Positions 45,875-56,003 of a stretch of DNA of 64,000 bases are shown one piece after another. The position numbers and the translations under genes are program-made. Within the stretch, counting starts at the first letter, position 1, and the number at the start of each line of letters is the position of its first letter. Source of the stretch: Candidatus Bathyarchaeota archaeon (GTDB lineage: Archaea; Thermoproteota; Bathyarchaeia; Bathyarchaeales; Bathycorpusculaceae); contig CAWHVC010000001.1 in NCBI GenBank assembly GCA_963832745.1, positions 448,001-512,000 on the forward strand, given 5' to 3'. Below the pieces are notes generated by a model, which saw only the letters and a program-made list of their open reading frames with translations, was not told the origin of the DNA and did not search any database.

Positions 45875-47179
45875 ATGAGCAAATCCGATAAACCCCACTT
45901 AAATATTATCATTATGGGGCACGTTGACAACGGCAAATCAACAACCACCGGACACTTACTGTATCTGGCAGGCGTTATCGACCAAAGAACAATAGACGCG
46001 TACCAAGCAGAAGCCGAAGCAATGGGCAAAGGCACATTCCACTTCGCGTGGGTACTTGACAACTTAAAGGAAGAACGTGAACGCGGTGTCACAATCGACC
46101 TTCGATTCCTACAATTCCCAACAAAGAAATACAACATGACCGTTATTGACGCACCAGGCCACAGAGACTTTATCAAGAACATGATCACTGGCGCAAGCCA
46201 AGCCGACGCAGCAGTCCTCTTCAGTTCAGCCAAGAAAGGCGAATTCGAAGCAGGCATTGGAGCTGGCGGTCAAACACGTGAACACGCATTCCTTGCATTC
46301 ACTTTAGGTATACGCCAATTAATTGTTGCCATCAACAAGATGGACGATAACACAGTTAACTGGAGCAAAGACCGCTACGATGAAATGAAGAACGAAATCT
46401 CAAGAATGCTCCGCATGGTCGGCTTCAAACTTGAGAAAATCAATTTCGTTCCAGTTTCAGGCTGGACAGGCGACAACTTGCTCAAGAAGAGCGACAAGAT
46501 GCCATGGTACACTGGTCCAACCTTAATGGAAGCATTCGACCTATTAGAACTTCCAGCAAAACCAACAAACAAACCACTCCGTGTTCCAGTCCAAGACATT
46601 TACACAATCACCGGCATCGGTACAGTCCCAGTCGGCAGAGTAGAAACAGGCATACTAAAACCAGGACAAAGCCTAATCTTCATGCCATCCAACAAGACCG
46701 CTGAAGTCAAATCCATCGAAATGCACCACACCAGCATCCCAATGGCAGAACCAGGCGACAACATCGGCATGAACGTTAGAGGCATCGCAAAGAACGATGT
46801 TCACCGCGGAGACGTTGCAGGTCCAGTTGACAACCCCCCAACAGTCGCAAAAGAATTCATCGGCCAAATCATCGTTATATACCACCCAACAGCAATCGCA
46901 GCAGGCTACACACCAGTACTTCACTACCACACAGGTCAAATCGCAGTCAAATTCGTTGAACTAATCAAGAAAATCGACCCACGCACAGGCCAAGTGTCAG
47001 AAGAACACCCATCCTTCCTAAAGACAGGAGACGCAGCATGGGTACGCATGGAACCATTCCACCCAATCGCAATCGAAGCATTCACAGACTTCCCAGAACT
47101 CGGCAGATTCGCAATCCGAGACATGGGCACCACCGTCGCAGCAGGCGCAGTCAAAGAAGTAACCAAGAAAGGGCCATAA
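45875..47179 (+). CDS. tuf: Translation elongation factor EF-1 alpha
   Basis: GHVDNGKST, ERERGVTI, DAPGHRDF, NKMD, LGRFAIRDMG. Confidence 0.98.
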   Translation: MSKSDKPHLNIIIMGHVDNGKSTTTGHLLYLAGVIDQRTIDAYQAEAEAMGKGTFHFAWVLDNLKEERERGVTIDLRFLQFPTKKYNMTVIDAPGHRDFIKNMITGASQADAAVLFSSAKKGEFEAGIGAGGQTREHAFLAFTLGIRQLIVAINKMDDNTVNWSKDRYDEMKNEISRMLRMVGFKLEKINFVPVSGWTGDNLLKKSDKMPWYTGPTLMEAFDLLELPAKPTNKPLRVPVQDIYTITGIGTVPVGRVETGILKPGQSLIFMPSNKTAEVKSIEMHHTSIPMAEPGDNIGMNVRGIAKNDVHRGDVAGPVDNPPTVAKEFIGQIIVIYHPTAIAAGYTPVLHYHTGQIAVKFVELIKKIDPRTGQVSEEHPSFLKTGDAAWVRMEPFHPIAIEAFTDFPELGRFAIRDMGTTVAAGAVKEVTKKGP

Positions 47180-47418
47180 ACCCTTTAACCCTTTTTAATC
47201 CTGAATTTTTAGGGTTTTATTTTTTGTTTTTAAATTTTTAAAATATTTTCTTATTGGAATGTTCATTTACCCTTTTTAACGTTCAAACCGCGCTAAACAG
47301 CAATCAGCTTACAGGGTACAATGACTTGTCTGTTAGAACGTACATAAATCATTTTTTTTTATCTTGTGTCCTTTCTGTAATATTTCTTATTATACTGCGG
47401 GTAACATAATTCTACGAT

Positions 47419-47547
47419 ATGAAAACGATAAAGGTTTCAGATGAAGTTCATGCAAAACTAACCAAAATGCTTGGCGAGAGGATTGCTAAAACAGGAAAAA
47501 TAGAGACTTATAATGAAGTGCTCTTGTATCTTCTTAACAAAACTTGA
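47419..47547 (+). CDS. 42-aa RHH/antitoxin-like protein
   Basis: MKTIKVSDEVHAKLTKMLGERIAKTGKIETYNEVLLYLLNKT; below the ORF-track size cutoff. Confidence 0.7.
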   Translation: MKTIKVSDEVHAKLTKMLGERIAKTGKIETYNEVLLYLLNKT

Positions 47548-47589
47548 TTCATTTTTAGATTAAAAAAGAAAAAATTGGATTAACCAATT

Positions 47590-48737
47590 TTATGGTGTTA
47601 CACTGATAGAGTCAACGTTTAATTGTGCGCTGCTTCCATTATTGTATACAAGAACGTTTACATACCTGAACGCGTTGGAAGAGTATCCGCAGTCTATCCA
47701 GCTTGGTGTTGTTGAAGAAATTATTTTGTCCGTTACGGTAGCGGTCCATGTCTGTTTGTCATTTGAGATGTAAACATACATATGGCTATTATAACCCGCG
47801 CTTGAGTAACCATAAATTTCAATTTTGCCCGTAGCTTGTTGGTTTAAAGTTGCGCTAAATCTCCCTGTTTCACCATTATTATATGCATAAATTGTTGCAT
47901 ACTGACCATCGTTGGTATTTCCTTGTACGTATGTGGGGTTATTGACTCTCTCATTGTAAGCGGGGTCTATGCTTGAGGCGTAATAAGATGTATTACTGTA
48001 TGTTTTTTGAACAAAGTCATTATTTTGCTGTAAGGATTATAAATTGCGTTTGAAAGATGCCCTGCACTTACAAAGAGATATTGATTATCGGATATGGTTG
48101 CGTTTTGTCCTATGCTTATTCCATTTCCTCCAACGTGTCCGACTGTTTTCTCATGATTGAAATTGATTAATCCCGCTTTTATTTCGCCGTTAATATACAT
48201 GCCGTTACATGGTTGACTTGACCAAACATTTGCTTTGATAAATGGTGCATGAAGTTTGCAATCTTGTCCTATGTCGATGCCTGTTAAATTTGATGTGTCT
48301 TTCAGCGATATTCCTACATCATCTATATGTGAGAAACTAAAGCTACCTGTACCAGTTCCTTTTGTGAATTGAATTCCTTTATTTACCCAGGCCATGCGGA
48401 TGTGTTCCATTCGTGTGGATTCCGACCATTTATTTGTAGTTGCAGTTACTTTAATTCCTACGTCAACGTTTTTTATACTGATGTTACGGATTTGACAATT
48501 ATAGACATCACTTAATTCGATCGCTGTTTCACTTCCAGTGTCGCCTAAAAGCACGATGTTTTCAATTGATGCGTTTTTGTTTAAATCACCGAAATTTGAT
48601 GCTACTCTGATGATTGGACTAGCGGATGACCTGATGGTGACAATTTTGCTGCCAGTACCTCTGAGAAGTCCATCAGCTGGAAGATCGATAGTATAACTAA
48701 ATGTTTGATCTTGTGAATATTCAATTAAACTACTCAT
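47590..48737 (-). pseudogene. Beta-helix protein with C-terminal beta-sandwich domain, split by a -1 frameshift
   Basis: ORF 47967-48737 overlaps a -1 frame that opens near 48036 and runs to 47590 (NDFVQKTYSNTSYYASS...SHMYVYISND...VTP*). Confidence 0.75.
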
Positions 48738-48921
48738 TTTTTAATTCCTCTTTTGATTTTTCATTTTTCCATTGACAAAAGAAAGCATTAAAGAAGACGA
48801 ATAATTACTGAAATAAGAGATGAAAAAGTTAATTTTGGCGAGAACATTTCAAATTAAAAACAAGATAACTAATTCAAAAAAAATAAGAGTTTGATAGGTT
48901 TAGTGTAAATAACTTTTCAAA

Positions 48922-49758
48922 CTATGCTCTTTTAATATATTCAGGTCTTCCGTAGGTATTAAGTACACTGCCGTTTGGTACAGTGTTAGGCGGTGTACCG
49001 TCATGGTGTAACCCTAATGTTTGTTCGCCAGCACTAAATATTTGTTGATTATAATCTTCGGTGCTTGAAACAGCAACAACAGCGTTTTGGCCTAATTGGA
49101 TTCCATAATTATCATTGTATTCAGAATCCAGACTTTCAGTTGTTAAGTCAATCAAACTATATTTAATTTCGCCATCAACGTACAAACCTCTAAGATTATT
49201 GTCATGTAACTAAACGTTTGCTTTTATGAATGAATTATGCAGCTTGCAACCTGTACTTAAGTAAATGCCTATTCTGCCTCAATCAGATGCCGGGTAGGTC
49301 TGTAAACTCATGCTTGTGTCAGCAATAAACGTAAATCCAAAGTCGCCTGTACTGCCTGTACTTTTTTCAAATAGAATTCCTTTGCGAATATACTTCATTC
49401 GAACATGTTCAATATGGTTTGCTTGACACCACTTTTGATTTGTTCTAAGTTTAATGCCTTCTTTACACCATTGGATGCCAACATTCCTGATCTGGCAATT
49501 GTAAACATCTTCAAGTAAAATTGCAGTTTGTCCGGTTGCTTCGGTTTGATCGGTTCCTCTTAGTATTATATTTTCGATAACGGCACTTTTTGTTATATCC
49601 CCAAAATTTGAATCTACCTGAACAATTGGGTTTGCACTGGAAGTAATTATTACTTTTCTACTTCCGTTAATTCCTCTCAGAATTCCATCAGCAGGTAAAT
49701 GGATGGTCGTTGTTAAAGTTGTTGGGGGATCATTATCAAACTCATAGGTTTCAGACAT
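48922..49758 (-). pseudogene. Beta-helix paralogue with two in-frame stops
   Basis: One frame from ATG 49758, with TGA 49279-49281 and TAG 49210-49212; FIKANV* aligns with FIKANVW/FIKANIW in the paralogues. Confidence 0.85.
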
Positions 49759-49959
49759 ATTTTTTCCTCCATTTTTTTTCAACTAAACATTTCAGCGGAA
49801 GATTACTTTAAAGAAAACGAAATATTACCGAAATATGCCTCCGGTAGTTTGGTCTAATATTTTAAAAACCTCAGAGTAAAAATTGATTAACTGGGTTATA
49901 GCAGTTTGTGAAGACAGCCTGCTACAGTGATTTTAAAAAAAGAAAAATAGACTTTCTTG

Positions 49960-51267
49960 TTATCTCTTTGTTTTACTTTTCCTAAAAAATATGGTTAAAA
50001 TTACAAATGTTACAACAAAAACAATTAATGCGGCTAATGGTATTTGCCAAGTTTCAATGAAACTAGACGCGTTTACAGTTTGTGAAGGTGTTTCGCTTGG
50101 AAGAGTATCATAGACAATTTTAGCCGCCCATATCGCTCTATTCTCCGAGAAGCCTTTGTATCCTGTAAAAATGTAACTGCCATCGTTGGCAACGGCAACC
50201 GATAAAATATATGGTTCTTTACCTTTAGCAAAGTTTTCACTCCATTGTAACTTGCCCGAGGCGCTGCATTTGGCAATAATTCCCACGTCACCGTTGCCTC
50301 CTGCAAAAACGTATCCGCCCTCTTTAGTTTGTGCTATTGATCTAAAAGCAACCGGAAAAGAGTCATTAAAATTTTGGCTCCATTGTATATTTCCCGCAGA
50401 ATCAACCTTAATAATGCGACCAAATTGATCGGAAAATCCGCTAAGCACAAACCCGCCATCGGCACTTTTAATAAGTGAATCGCATTCATCGCCTGAAGAT
50501 TCTCCATAGCGTTTTTCCCACTGGGTATCGCCTACACGGTTAATCTTGACAAGCCACATATCTTGCTGACCTGCTGACTGATATGTGGTGGCTCCAGCAA
50601 AAACATACCCATCACTATTTTCAACAATTGAATAAATGTCGCTGTATACTCCAGGATTTACTTTACCGTAAGTTTTGTTCCATAGTACGTTCCCATTTGA
50701 ATCAGTTTTAACAAGCCTGCCCTCTGAATAAAAATAAGGCTTATCGCCACCACCGACACCGACAATAACAAATCCATTATCACTTGTCTGGATTACTGAC
50801 CTGACTGAAACATCAGACCTATCGGGAAATGTATCATAAGTCTTATTCCATTGAAGGACTCCTTGAGAATCGATTTTACATAAGGTTCTTCCAGACAAGA
50901 CAGCAAAACCGTTATCGCTTGTCAAAATTGCATCATTAATGGAACCAAAAGACCCGTAATTTTTTGTCCATTGAATACTCCCTTGTGAATCAATTTTGAT
51001 GAGCACCATGCTTTCATTACTCCAGCCACCTGGTTCACGCGTCTGTACCCATTGCTCAGTGCCCCCAACTATAAGGTATCGGCGGTCATTCAGCGCTAAG
51101 ATGTTTGTACCATAGAAAGGATTAAACGTTTTATCCCATTCAACATTAGGTATTGCTATATTGTTCGTATTGCTTGGAAGCTGCAGAGTTATCTCAGTAT
51201 AAAAAACGCTAATAATAAGGCATAACATGAAAATTTTTTTAGAGGTTATATTCTTCTTATTAGTCAT
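49960..51267 (-). CDS. Secreted membrane-anchored beta-propeller repeat protein
   Basis: Repeats LIKIDSQGSIQWTKNY / LVKTDSNGNVLWNKTY / DGGFVLSG; C-terminal TM helix. Confidence 0.85.
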   Translation of the reverse strand: MTNKKNITSKKIFMLCLIISVFYTEITLQLPSNTNNIAIPNVEWDKTFNPFYGTNILALNDRRYLIVGGTEQWVQTREPGGWSNESMVLIKIDSQGSIQWTKNYGSFGSINDAILTSDNGFAVLSGRTLCKIDSQGVLQWNKTYDTFPDRSDVSVRSVIQTSDNGFVIVGVGGGDKPYFYSEGRLVKTDSNGNVLWNKTYGKVNPGVYSDIYSIVENSDGYVFAGATTYQSAGQQDMWLVKINRVGDTQWEKRYGESSGDECDSLIKSADGGFVLSGFSDQFGRIIKVDSAGNIQWSQNFNDSFPVAFRSIAQTKEGGYVFAGGNGDVGIIAKCSASGKLQWSENFAKGKEPYILSVAVANDGSYIFTGYKGFSENRAIWAAKIVYDTLPSETPSQTVNASSFIETWQIPLAALIVFVVTFVILTIFFRKSKTKR

Positions 51268-51334
51268 CTTGAATAATACGATATTGCAAAGATATAAATT
51301 TTTTTAAAAAAAGAAAAAAGGAATAAAAATTAAG

Positions 51335-53092
51335 TTAAGTTACAGGTCGAACTTGGATTTTATCGTTGTCGTTGAGATTACTAGGGTATACATTGGTGGA
51401 AAGGTTGTTAGTTGCGAGGAAAAAATCCTGATTGTTCTTAATTGGGCTTGAAATATTAAAATCGACTTTTAATCCTGTTCCACCCGTTGACCCTAATTTT
51501 GATACATATAGATTAACTAATGCCATTCCTCCTAGAGAACTATTACCCGTTTCGTAAGTGCCTATTTTTCGCAGATATACACCTATAGAGTCAGAATATT
51601 GAAGCCAAATGTTTGCCTTTATAAATGAACTATACGTTGTAATATTATTATATTCTTTGTTGGCTTGGGTTTCTATTTTTGGTTCCAAATCAATGCCTAT
51701 ACAGTTTGCCGCGTTGTTAAGTAGTATTCCAACGTCCTCTATATGGGTGTAAGCAAAGCTGTTTTGATCACCATTGGTATTTTCAAAGTAAATCCCTTTA
51801 TTCACATTTGATATTCTTACGTGTGTGATATTTGTTAGTTCAGTCCAACGATTGGTTGAGTTTTTAAGATGGATCCCTATATTGCAGTTATTGATCGAAA
51901 CGTTCCTAATTTGACAATGGCAGGTGCCATTAATGAGAATTCCCGTGTTAGTTCCATTTCCTTGCAAAATGATATTTTCAATCAATGGCGATTCGAGTTC
52001 ATCAATTTCTTCGTTATAATCAGGGCGATTTACAATGATTATAGGTTTGTCTCCTGAAGAAGATATTACCGTATTCTTACTTCCATACCCCGTTAATCGA
52101 GAAAAGTTGCTTATCTCGATTGATCCCCAGTCTCCATGTTGTGGTTCTTGGTTGACATATTTTCGTACTAATCCGTAATCGCTTGTTGTGCCTGTTTGTT
52201 CCATAACAACGGCAGTGTCGAAATGTATTCTAGAAATGTTACCGTTTCCACCACTTGATTGGTTTATTTCTATGTAGTCCCAACATCCGTTCATCCAATT
52301 GGCAATCCACGCGTCTCTAAGGAGTAAGAAGATTGTTACATACTCGTTTTGTGCAGCGCTAACGTCAATGTAATGATCCTGTAAGTCTGGACCCCAAGTG
52401 TAATTGAATGTTTTATCGCAATTATAGAGTAAACCTGCGCCTTTAGTTAGTGGCCAGTTATATGGAAAATCAGCAGTGTTTGATCTTAAGTAAACGCCAT
52501 CGTATATTCGAACACACCATTCGTAAGAATCTTCAAAATAGTTCCAATCACCTTTCCATGACCAACGTAAATATTTGCCGTTGATCCATGATTTTGGAAC
52601 TACCATAAAGGCCCATCCAAATCCAAGACCATTCAAGGGGGAACTCATTTTTAGCCAAGTTGATTGATCAATCGAGAATGTGATGTCAGGGTTGTAACTA
52701 GGAACTACTTTATGTTCACGTAATTGTACAATTCCTGTTGTAAATTGATTGCCTTCTGATGTTGCAGATGGATTGTTATAGTAAACAAATATTGTTTGAT
52801 TTGTACTCGATAAATCGCCAGATACTTTAACCCAGAATGTTGCTTGGGTAGCAGTTGATACACTTTCCATATAATAAGGAAGTAACGTGGTTCCGTCGTC
52901 AGATGTAAAACGTATGTCAGTAAAATCAGTTTTGCAAAATCCGTTCATATTAACGATGTTTCCAGAATCTGAACCGCTATTGTAGTTGACCATTATTTTG
53001 ACCTGATATCCGTTGCCTGCTCCGGGTGAACTTTGAATAACATGGCTCTTTCTACAGCCCCATGCTTTGTCATACCAATCACTATTTACCAT
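51335..53092 (-). CDS. DUF2341 + beta-helix protein
   Basis: DFTDIRFTSDDGTTLLPYYME...FWVKV...YYNNPSA; C-terminal IENIILQG...CQIRNVSI shared with the two paralogues; ATG 53092 after GGAGG. Confidence 0.8.
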   Translation of the reverse strand: MVNSDWYDKAWGCRKSHVIQSSPGAGNGYQVKIMVNYNSGSDSGNIVNMNGFCKTDFTDIRFTSDDGTTLLPYYMESVSTATQATFWVKVSGDLSSTNQTIFVYYNNPSATSEGNQFTTGIVQLREHKVVPSYNPDITFSIDQSTWLKMSSPLNGLGFGWAFMVVPKSWINGKYLRWSWKGDWNYFEDSYEWCVRIYDGVYLRSNTADFPYNWPLTKGAGLLYNCDKTFNYTWGPDLQDHYIDVSAAQNEYVTIFLLLRDAWIANWMNGCWDYIEINQSSGGNGNISRIHFDTAVVMEQTGTTSDYGLVRKYVNQEPQHGDWGSIEISNFSRLTGYGSKNTVISSSGDKPIIIVNRPDYNEEIDELESPLIENIILQGNGTNTGILINGTCHCQIRNVSINNCNIGIHLKNSTNRWTELTNITHVRISNVNKGIYFENTNGDQNSFAYTHIEDVGILLNNAANCIGIDLEPKIETQANKEYNNITTYSSFIKANIWLQYSDSIGVYLRKIGTYETGNSSLGGMALVNLYVSKLGSTGGTGLKVDFNISSPIKNNQDFFLATNNLSTNVYPSNLNDNDKIQVRPVT

Positions 53093-53286
53093 TTTTTTTC
53101 CTCCATTTTCAAGGCTATCATTCCCTGTAGTAAGCATTAAGGAAGACGAAAAAATACTGAAATACATCTTGAACTATAATGGCCTATATATATACATCAC
53201 TTTTACTTACCTCTCCATTTACGAAATTATTCGTTTGATTTAAAGGCTTTTTACTACATTTTGTAACTAAATTGGAGGACTGTGGC

Positions 53287-53625
53287 GTGAATCTCGAAAA
53301 AGTATTGACCTCATCTTGTAGACAAAAGATATTGAAAGAACTTTCAATTTCAAAAAGTATCCATGTGATGGGACTAGTAAGAAAAATTAATAGTACCTAT
53401 ATTGAAGTAAATAGAAATTTGAAAATTCTGGAAAAAGAGGGCGTATTAACTGATAGGCGTGTTGGGCGTATGCGTATGCTTAGATTAAATTATGATAATC
53501 CTAAGACTGTTTTGTTATTACAAGCTCTTAAAATATTAAATTCGCCTATAGCTTCAACTGATTTGCCTGTGAAGCCAATTAAATTTGATGACCCTTGCCT
53601 AAATAATTTAAAAAAGAGGCTTTAA
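53287..53625 (+). CDS. ArsR-like winged-helix regulator
   Basis: SSCRQKILKEL...RNLKILEKEGVL...GRMR. Confidence 0.75.
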   Translation: MNLEKVLTSSCRQKILKELSISKSIHVMGLVRKINSTYIEVNRNLKILEKEGVLTDRRVGRMRMLRLNYDNPKTVLLLQALKILNSPIASTDLPVKPIKFDDPCLNNLKKRL

Positions 53626-53717
53626 TCAAAAAGGTGTTTAATTTAATGAAAAAGGTTAATTCATTTCAGAAGTTAGGCTGTTTAATCTCTGGAAGTTTGC
53701 ATTTGATCAATATTTGT

Positions 53718-53912
53718 ATGGCTTCAGGTCAATCAGACTGCAGTAAACGAAACGTGCTCGTTGACCAAATCATTGATAGCGTGATTGTAGGGGGGATAAC
53801 CGGTGTTTCTACTTATGTCGCTGCAGGAGAAACGATTTCGATTAATTCTGCCATTCTGGCATTTACTCTTACATTTCTTATAAAAATGAAGGAGTATCGA
53901 AAAATAAAATAG
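53718..53912 (+). CDS. Small two-helix membrane protein (holin-like, inferred)
   Basis: 64 aa, two hydrophobic segments, basic tail; a decayed paralogue at 20219-20379 supports coding status. Confidence 0.65.
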   Translation: MASGQSDCSKRNVLVDQIIDSVIVGGITGVSTYVAAGETISINSAILAFTLTFLIKMKEYRKIK

Positions 53913-54279
53913 TTGATAGCTTCAAAATTGAGGTCTTTTTATGGGTGTTTTAAAACGGTTGTATGAACTCATTAGACGGCATGTTAGAGAGGTCGCAATA
54001 GGTTAAGCGCCCTATGCCCCTTTATTTTTTTATTTTATTCATTTTTAGTCATCCTTTTTTTACATGTCAACGTTATTTAACTGTTAACCTAAACCTTGAA
54101 TAACTCCATACTCCCCCTTTTTTAATCTTTTTTGTTTTAACTTTAAATTAGAGTTTTAGACAAATTTCAAAATTGTTACCTTATCATTTTACAAAAAATT
54201 GGTTAAAAGGTTCTTGCTTGCCTTTTAAGCCTAAGTCCTTAATATTTACTAACCTATTTGAAAATTGCTTGTTCCAACA

Positions 54280-54885
54280 TCAATCAACCGCTTCATCATT
54301 TATGAAGCGGAAGTATGTTTCGTTTCCGAAGGTGCTTCCATAAATATATTCGCCAGAGCTAATGCTTTTGAGTTGCATTTCTTGATTTAATTTCAATGAT
54401 TCCGCGTGTCCTGTACCTTCTGCTGATGCAAATGAGGCGCCTAAATGGTACTGAAAAGGGTGAGCATTTAATCCACCTATATTCGATTCAGTCAAGCCCA
54501 TGTTTTCTGTGAATGCTACTAACTTAGAGGTATGAGGGTAGAACCAGTAGGCATTGCTTTCGGAAAAAGTACGTTGATATGAAAAAACTTCGAGGTTTGT
54601 TTGGAATATTTGTATGTCAGTAAGGCGCAAAGTGGCATCAGATGGGTTGGTTATGTTTACAACAAATACATATGAAAGTATGCTACGGAAGGCTACCCCT
54701 GAAGCTTCTGAAGTATTATAAACTTTAAAGTACGCTTGCACTAAAGTGGCATCAATAGGGTATGAAGTGTCAGCGTTTGTCATTGTACCAAAATCAGACT
54801 GGAAAGAAACGAATCCAATTAAGATGCCCACTATAAACGCTGTGCAAATAATTATTATCAATTTCCTTTTAACCATAATTTGCAC
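54280..54885 (-). CDS. Hypothetical N-anchored secreted protein
   Basis: N-terminal TM helix; VVNITNPSD Ig-like motif. Confidence 0.65.
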   Translation of the reverse strand: MQIMVKRKLIIIICTAFIVGILIGFVSFQSDFGTMTNADTSYPIDATLVQAYFKVYNTSEASGVAFRSILSYVFVVNITNPSDATLRLTDIQIFQTNLEVFSYQRTFSESNAYWFYPHTSKLVAFTENMGLTESNIGGLNAHPFQYHLGASFASAEGTGHAESLKLNQEMQLKSISSGEYIYGSTFGNETYFRFINDEAVD

Positions 54886-54978
54886 CCCACGTTAACATAC
54901 AACCTATTGTTTTTTATATTTACATTGAAACCGAATGTTCTAAATCTAATAATAGTCTGAAAATTTTGGATAAAGAAT

Positions 54979-55014
54979 TTGTGACTGTATTTGGCTAGTC
55001 ACAAGTGTATATAT
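54979..55014 (+). promoter_or_regulatory. Inverted-repeat operator candidate and TATA box
   Basis: TTGTGACT-N10-AGTCACAA (54979-55004), then TATATAT (55008-55014). Confidence 0.55.
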
Positions 55015-55034
55015 TTTTTCTCTGCAGCCTAAAT

Positions 55035-55180
55035 GGTAAGGTGCGTGGATGGAGATACCTGAAACCCGAAAAATCAAAAAATTAAGCTCAGACGAAAAGT
55101 TTGGAAGTATAGCTTATTCCCTCAGAGACGTGCCTATTGAGCAAAGGCGCAAAGAAGCAGACAAACCCCTGTACCTTACC
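55035..55180 (+). ncRNA. Candidate ~150-nt structured sRNA
   Basis: 10-bp terminal stem GGTAAGGTGC/GTACCTTACC, two internal hairpins, upstream TATA, downstream T-rich tract. Confidence 0.6.
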
Positions 55181-55268
55181 CGATACGAGTAACATTTTTC
55201 TCTTTTGCAAGTTTAAAGCGTAACCAAAATAAGCTTGAAGCATCGGTTATGCTATGCATTGATGCATT

Positions 55269-56003
55269 ATGTCAGGCACCGAAACGCTTGTTCCATTCAT
55301 TGGCGACAAAAAGAAAGGCGAAGAACCAACAATCATCATTGACAGTCGCGAAGCCAGTAGCGCACAAAAAATCGTCAAAGGCTTAATCGAAAAAAACGTA
55401 ACAATCAAAACTCAAATGCTTGAGAAAGGCGACTACATCATCTCCGACGAATGTGCTGTTGAAAGAAAAACCGTTAACGACTTCGTTTACACCCTGACAA
55501 GACGTTACCTGTTTGAACAACTTTTTCTCTTAAAAGATGTTTATCCAAAAGCCTTGCTTGTTCTTGAAGGCTACCTGCCAATCATTTACAAGTACAGCAG
55601 TATTCAGCCTCAAGCCGTATGGGGCGCAATGTTCAATTTGGCAAAAAACGGCATCGCCATAGTCAACACAGCTTCTCATAAAGAAACCGTGGACTTCCTT
55701 TACACTGCGGCTAAACAGGAACAGATAGTTGAAAAACGCAGCGCCGTCGTGCATGCTTTCAAAAAATGCGAGACTTTGGCGGATTCTCAAATTTACTTTG
55801 TAGCTAGCTTGCCAAATATTGGTAGAGAGAAGGCTACGGCTATTTTGGGTGCTTACCAAACGCCGATTAATGCGTTGATGAATGTAGAACACTGGTCTAA
55901 GACTGTTAATGGTTTGGGTCCTGTAATTACTAATAAGGTGAAAGAGGTTGTTTCTACGCCTTATAAGGAAGCGAAACAGCAGCAGGATTGTAAAACTGAA
56001 TAA
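55269..56003 (+). CDS. xpf: Short XPF/ERCC4 structure-specific endonuclease
   Basis: IDSRE, GDY, VERKT..D, LVLEG, HhH (LPNIGREKA, GLGP). Confidence 0.92.
   Translation: MSGTETLVPFIGDKKKGEEPTIIIDSREASSAQKIVKGLIEKNVTIKTQMLEKGDYIISDECAVERKTVNDFVYTLTRRYLFEQLFLLKDVYPKALLVLEGYLPIIYKYSSIQPQAVWGAMFNLAKNGIAIVNTASHKETVDFLYTAAKQEQIVEKRSAVVHAFKKCETLADSQIYFVASLPNIGREKATAILGAYQTPINALMNVEHWSKTVNGLGPVITNKVKEVVSTPYKEAKQQQDCKTE

Follow-up and report, generated by a model that had tools for sequence, protein, structure and literature searches.

The window (the whole 64,000-nucleotide stretch analyzed here) very probably holds, at positions 55049-55192 of its + strand, a gene of a conserved small-protein family, with its own predicted palindrome-TATA promoter, a predicted end at a T-rich tract, and a free product that would dock by its C-terminus, a reading to which we assign a probability of about 0.88. 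The frame carries a Shine-Dalgarno sequence and a stop codon, it ends in a C-terminus that is fixed among relatives, its substitutions follow a third-position pattern, and it stands behind a conserved promoter module at a locus with no conserved RNA structure. An original prediction for this locus had described a complete, regulated transcription unit for a stable noncoding RNA of about 150 nt, or else a leader for the downstream xpf gene, and had seen no ORF. Every element on which it was built (the inverted repeat, TATATAT, the closing stem, the inner hairpins and the T-rich tract) could be located in the sequence. Its statement that no ORF is present was mistaken, as a frame of 47 codons runs from an ATG at 55049 to a TAA at 55190-55192, preceded by AAGGTG at 55038-55043. 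The elements mapped between 54979 and 55206 are:

54979-54986 / 54997-55004, no strand assigned: the two arms of the palindrome TTGTGACT-N10-AGTCACAA, which immediately precedes the TATA box and is predicted to be an operator or an upstream promoter element
55008-55015, + strand: predicted TATA box (TATATATT; TATATAT at 55008-55014), at the same place in relatives
55035-55044, + strand: 5' arm of the closing stem (GGTAAGGTGC), overlying the Shine-Dalgarno, private to the window genome
55038-55043, + strand: Shine-Dalgarno AAGGTG, 5 nt 5' of the ATG
55049-55192, + strand: 47-codon coding sequence closed by TAA, product MEIPETRK...SLRDVPIEQRRKEADKPLYLTRYE
55083-55088 / 55111-55116, + strand: inner hairpin TAAGCT / AGCTTA, enclosing CAGAC-GAAAA-GTTTG and GAAGTAT
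55121-55189, + strand: residues 25-47, the conserved module at the C-terminus, predicted to serve as a docking peptide and made up of a short helix followed by KPLYLTRYE-COOH as an extended tail
55130-55135 / 55145-55150, + strand: hairpin GTGCCT / AGGCGC
55171-55180, + strand: 3' arm of the closing stem (GTACCTTACC), within codons 41-44 (L Y L T)
55195-55206, + strand: T-rich tract TTTTTCTCTTTT, predicted archaeal transcription terminator, with a matching tract in the nearest relative (L002)

The full product of the frame is MEIPETRKIKKLSSDEKFGSIAYSLRDVPIEQRRKEADKPLYLTRYE, a protein of 5.6 kDa with a pI of 9.1. Start codon, ribosome-binding site and stop codon are all in place at 55049-55192, and (A)AGGTG is found a few bases 5' of the chosen start in most relatives. 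Across a set of 23 homologues, from which one locus with two extra C-terminal codons (L012) was omitted, pairwise differences over the last 24 codons came to 0.227 at the first codon position, 0.111 at the second and 0.530 at the third, and synonymous and non-synonymous codon differences numbered 2649 and 1282 in frame, compared with 437 and 3272, and 181 and 3574, in the two shifted frames, such that a third-position synonymous bias appears in one frame only. Moreover, Arg and Leu are spelled with diverse codons among the homologues, all three stop codons are in use, and differences in length are in frame; the nearest relative is without seven codons of the variable part, exactly at the inner hairpin of the original prediction. 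The G+C content of 55035-55192 is 0.443, within the range of the neighboring genes (0.42-0.48; EF1A 0.481, xpf 0.419) and unlike that of the tRNAs of the window (0.60 and 0.65).

That the stretch yields instead a structured, stable RNA of about 150 nt in which the ORF is incidental, as originally envisaged, we consider extremely improbable. The helices named in the original prediction do occur in the minimum-free-energy fold of the + strand, promoter-like and terminator-like elements lie on either side, and the choice of the + strand was correct, with the - strand folding worse than its own shuffles (z +1.23). However, the + strand structure is not above chance (-35.9 kcal/mol, compared with -31.5 +/- 4.0 for shuffles; z -1.08, with 21/200 shuffles as good), the inner hairpins fall in the part that is variable or deleted among relatives, and both the substitutions and the G+C content are those of coding DNA. 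The original prediction had proposed two computational checks, an Rfam scan and a search for structural conservation among homologues, and had itself named missing conservation as the result that would speak against it. RNAalifold, applied to the transcripts of 23 homologues, each taken from 20 nt before the start codon to 20 nt after the stop, returned 0 conserved pairs. At gathering thresholds, the Rfam scan of the window reported two tRNAs elsewhere and no family at the small-gene locus; when extended to E<=10 it added nothing usable there, the single match below E 1 being to the SscA RNA (RF00063) at 55042-55105 (+), a local match of 64 nt to a 96-position model that reaches 25.2 bits (E 0.048) where 60 are needed, and that does not make the locus a member. 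Neither an Rfam family at threshold, nor stability beyond that of shuffles combined with conserved or covarying pairs, was therefore found, and the claim of a stable noncoding RNA gives way to a unit that carries a conserved coding frame.

The closing stem (55035-55044/55171-55180) has 10 pairs including one G.U, and 11 with a further G.U. It invites an explanation in which the coding gene bears a lineage-specific add-on, its mRNA regulating itself through a 10-11-bp stem (55035-55045/55170-55180) that would hide the Shine-Dalgarno and gate translation. The stem covers AAGGTG wholly, a G.U pair in it suits the + strand only, and the duplex between the Shine-Dalgarno and the 3' end of the ORF, for segments that were chosen post hoc, amounts to -20.5 kcal/mol where shuffles average -12.7 and 2/200 of them get as low, a strong pairing that is left unexplained if the transcript is a plain mRNA. 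However, uninterrupted stems of at least 10 pairs (G.U allowed) arise in 52/300 dinucleotide shuffles of 55030-55205, and of at least 11 pairs in 18/300, and a transcript beginning near 55038 would forfeit three of the pairs. Furthermore, the pairing was seen in none of the relatives tested (0/23): in the nearest one the same duplex has -10.5 kcal/mol, compared with a shuffle average of -10.0, and in the others it was reached by 21/200 to 182/200 shuffles. As the duplex is unremarkable in all 23 relatives, we take the stem to be private to the window genome, where it relies on the synonymous spelling TAC CTT ACC while relatives use other codons. Such a private stem could be due to chance, and we regard translational gating as quite improbable.

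The coding gene is preceded by a promoter module that is kept among its relatives. Aligned on AGTCACAA, these share TTGTTGnTG, 8 nt, (C)AGTCACAA, 4-5 nt, and then (C/T)ATATAT or TTTTTAT; the spacer between TTGTTGnTG and the right arm is 8 nt long in 15/24 loci, and the start codon lies 44-50 nt past the right arm in 22/24. The 8-mer palindrome is perfect in the window and in the nearest relative, and imperfect in most relatives. The palindrome at 54979-55004 was also scored as a terminator-like hairpin; against this score, we read it as an operator or upstream promoter element because the module recurs in front of TATA boxes. The promoter reading of palindrome and TATA box holds at the level of the sequence, from which both promoter and terminator activity are predicted. 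Transcription in archaea usually starts about 26 nt after the TATA box, and with this spacing the transcript would extend from ~55035-55040 to ~55199-55206, within the T-tract that begins 3 nt past the stop codon of the small gene; xpf (55269-56003) lies on the same strand, 76 nt downstream of the small gene. The resulting mRNA of ~160-170 nt would be close in size to the RNA of ~150 nt first expected, and it reads as protein-coding. Similarly, the proposal of a complete, regulated transcription unit survives in its boundaries, given the promoter module, start-codon distance and Shine-Dalgarno that relatives retain and the T-tract after the stop, and falls in its content, which is not a noncoding RNA.

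We scanned the window genome (G000) with a degenerate form of the module, TTGTTGnTG-N7-9-nA[GA][TC]CACAA, and obtained 11 matches at 9 sites, compared with 0 once the genome was reversed and 0-1 per local shuffle (ten shuffles). At all 9 sites the module lies 3-5 nt 5' of a TATA-like box. Apart from the small gene, the sites are C1:438302(+), C1:8035(-), C2:30349(+), C3:3242 (palindromic), C4:93507(+), C4:233859(-), C5:89821(+) and C5:517255(+). The ORFs downstream of module sites are mostly small, among them a 43-aa Zn-finger-like ORF and its frameshifted copy, a 60-aa double Zn-finger, an 89-aa acidic, an 82-aa membrane and a 120-aa TFS-like protein, which makes the recurrent module a candidate regulon of small proteins. 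Other members of the family bear other upstream elements. A paralog in another genome (G027) has the same architecture in other letters (TTGTTGTAA-N8-CTATAACAA-TGG-TATATAT), and in other subfamilies (L012, L039, L040, L042, L043, L049 and L058; L038, L056 and L057) the conserved sequence upstream is a different one, either ATGAATTT-N-AAATTCAT, a palindrome, or TTTATTAAGTCTTAATATA. The differing elements of these subfamilies suggest that separate paralogs of the small-protein family may have separate regulators.

A six-frame search at E<=1 found the peptide in 34/61 related genomes, including 27/36 other genomes of the genus, and a profile search at E<=0.001 found it in 35/301 genomes of the class. 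Its well-supported hosts among these 301 genomes belong to two families of one order of Bathyarchaeia (f1, 28/48 genomes; f6, 5/6). A third family (f13) gave a single questionable match, partial and lying within a 506-aa frame, and the small protein was not found in the other families of the class that were searched (e.g., 0/71 and 0/43). In a library of 1.84 billion proteins, 235 cluster representatives matched at E<=0.001, of which 64 also passed E<=1e-10; among the matches listed (150), lengths range from 30 to 115 aa, and nearly all matches reach the last residue of the protein. Three matches to fused or longer forms were set aside, two because we judge the ORF calls, on short contigs, to be chimeric or over-extended, and the third, on a 595-base contig, for having lost the terminal part of the tail motif.

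The exact 47-aa product is absent from a collection of 15 billion proteins, so that gene callers had evidently not predicted it, and a word-indexed homology search recovered just 2 relatives; taken together, these two results indicate that the gene has been largely missed or left unnamed. Where family members have a name it is "hypothetical protein", in MAGs of Candidatus Bathyarchaeota/Bathyarchaeia. Pfam and NCBIfam have no family for the window protein at their curated cut-offs, 26 members compared with both libraries gave scattered matches in 1 or 2 members each (all E>=0.014), and a profile search against PDB sequences returned chance-level matches only (E>=0.22). In the ESM Atlas nothing usable was retrieved for the window protein, and one member (P0005) led only to unnamed, unrelated-looking clusters. 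Full-text literature searches brought up nothing about the small-protein family, which thus seems to be without description in Pfam, NCBIfam, the PDB and the literature searched. With no relative in Pfam, NCBIfam or the PDB, we can only infer its function.

The profile used in the class-wide and library searches is an alignment of 26 sequences (A1), which includes 24/30 loci of the six-frame search and leaves out L003, for which a start codon could not be identified, as well as L025, L026, L028, L029 and L030, which are distant or of unclear start. Across the family the C-terminus reads SLKDVPLExRRKEAxKPL[FY]LxRYE, directly followed by the stop. Seven residues are invariant in the alignment (R33, A37, P40, L41, L43, R45 and Y46) and six are nearly so (L25, D27, P29, R34, K39 and E47). 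An AlphaFold2 model computed with this alignment has a mean pLDDT of 71 and a single helix, at residues 30-37; by blocks of ten residues, the pLDDT is 53 and 52 over the first 20 residues and 81, 91 and 80 from residue 21, such that the N-terminus is probably disordered. Because a variable, low-confidence N-terminus is combined with an invariant tail that ends one residue after the Tyr, we interpret the tail as a docking tail, and the conservation and the model together suggest that the product probably acts through it.

Several known systems resemble parts of this protein. Some archaeal small proteins on short independent transcripts, such as sP26 and sP36 of Methanosarcina mazei and examples from Haloferax volcanii, were first taken for small RNAs. 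The window protein is like them in being shorter than 60 aa, in having a predicted promoter and terminator of its own within a gap between genes, where it is easily read as an sRNA, and, by analogy, in that it may be expected to bind a larger protein; unlike them, it is without Zn-finger cysteines and has no sequence relation in Pfam, NCBIfam or the PDB. Proteasome activators dock through a C-terminal tail, the HbYX motif, with which the family shares an invariant penultimate Tyr at a fixed distance from the free C-terminus (RYE are the final residues in 139/153 family sequences). We rejected an HbYX tail, as the Tyr is preceded by an invariant Arg and not by a hydrophobic residue; no proteasome genes occur in the neighborhoods examined. 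Pup and UBact-type proteins are disordered protein modifiers with a C-terminal GG[QE], and they likewise are small and largely disordered, are conserved in their C-terminal half and end in Glu. A Pup-like modifier was nonetheless rejected, as the family ends in RYE and as the PafA/Dop-type Pup-ligase domain PF03136 was not found in the 99%-complete window genome, in a search whose control, the Corynebacterium glutamicum genome, was matched. A PCNA-interacting PIP box (Qxx[LIM]xx[FY][FY]) was discarded too, since the motif is missing from the consensus KEAKKPLFLTRYE.

To place the small gene in its genomic context, we compared 65/98 flanking ORFs with Pfam. In 20/29 relatives' loci (related genomes, not independent samples) the small gene is immediately preceded by the gene for aEF1A, on the same strand, and in the nearest relative a GNAT gene stands between the two. 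Another 18 loci come from other genera; in 8 of these aEF1A is adjacent, and the 8 account for the eight highest-scoring small-gene matches there. A ninth has aEF1A beside a copy of the small gene that is interrupted by an internal stop codon. XPF occurs within the locus in 5/18, and 9 more distant loci contain neither XPF nor aEF1A. In the window itself, aEF1A (45875-47179) is 7.9 kb away from the small gene. The intervening ~7.9 kb (47180-55048) hold mostly minus-strand genes, including a 610-aa DUF2341 protein, a 435-aa PQQ_2/BamB-like protein and ORFs without a Pfam match, and look like a lineage insertion or rearrangement, the two genes being adjacent in most relatives. Beyond these, gene order follows no single theme: an HTH_45 gene immediately precedes the small gene in 4/4 loci of family f6, in two other genera a divergent DUF5752 gene lies next to it, and downstream genes vary from metallo-beta-lactamase-fold and periplasmic binding proteins to genes without a Pfam match.

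Some individual loci show further peculiarities. The G027 genome has a second small-gene copy (L050:2457-2576) with its own palindrome-TATA promoter, 116 nt after the gene for aRF1 (eRF1-domain) and directly before a P-type ATPase; among 81 genomes of the genus an aRF1-linked copy was found in this one only, and we set the link aside as an anecdote. At L015 aEF1A is split into two ORFs, as it is, judging by ORF sizes only, at L051 (G016), and the small-gene copies at L048 (G275) and L051 contain an internal stop or frameshift; these may be pseudogenes or assembly errors. At L036 a heliorhodopsin gene (2097-2918 in G139; PF18761, E 6e-94) is convergent to the small gene. Within the window, the gap after aEF1A contains a 42-codon ORF at 47419-47548 (+) (MKTIKVSDEVHAKL...) with a T-rich TATA-like region upstream, and its product looks like a small protein of the ribbon-helix-helix type.

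The variable downstream side bears on the possibility that the peptide acts in cis, as leader and arrest peptides such as TnaC and SecM do, with a ribosome pausing at the stop codon and thereby controlling read-through of the T-rich terminator into xpf. Conservation that is limited to the last ~25 residues and ends exactly at the stop, a terminator-like tract 3 nt further on, xpf as the next gene on the same strand, and ERCC4/XPF directly downstream in 13/29 relatives' loci would all be in line with such an arrangement. Unlike the situation in TnaC and SecM, however, the downstream gene is not constant and is convergent at L013, L017, L027, L033 and L036, the more distant members adjoin neither xpf nor aEF1A, and the spacer to the next gene usually measures 150-500 nt. 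Downstream genes that vary and are partly convergent argue against a leader for xpf, the second function originally offered for the locus, as the gene is present also where xpf does not follow it, and we judge cis-acting arrest to be very improbable.

These results favor a coding gene with a trans-acting product. According to the mechanism we propose, the small gene would be transcribed from its own palindrome-plus-TATA promoter, transcription would stop at the T-rich tract at 55195-55206, and the product would work as a free small protein that docks onto a partner protein through its 25 invariant C-terminal residues. Gene order alone makes the translation apparatus, in the form of aEF1A, our leading guess for this partner, and an unlikely one. 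More doubtful still is the fuller scenario of a lineage-specific, tightly regulated translation microprotein, in which the tail (helix plus KPL[FY]LxRYE-COOH) might bind aEF1A or an aEF1A-delivered factor, or might plug the ribosome like a hibernation factor, and in which the gene would be part of a small-protein regulon with a TTGTTGnTG-N8-CAGTCACAA operator directly before the TATA box.

The main value of the finding is corrective: what looked like a tidy noncoding-RNA transcription unit is a small gene that had escaped the gene callers in the window genome, an overlooked archaeal small protein that is fairly ordinary of its kind. It belongs to a well-conserved, unannotated family (the 235 representatives above), whose invariant C-terminal peptide invites a search for its partner. 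Furthermore, the palindrome-TATA module, found before mostly small-protein genes, could mark out a regulon, in an uncultured lineage for which next to nothing is known about regulation.
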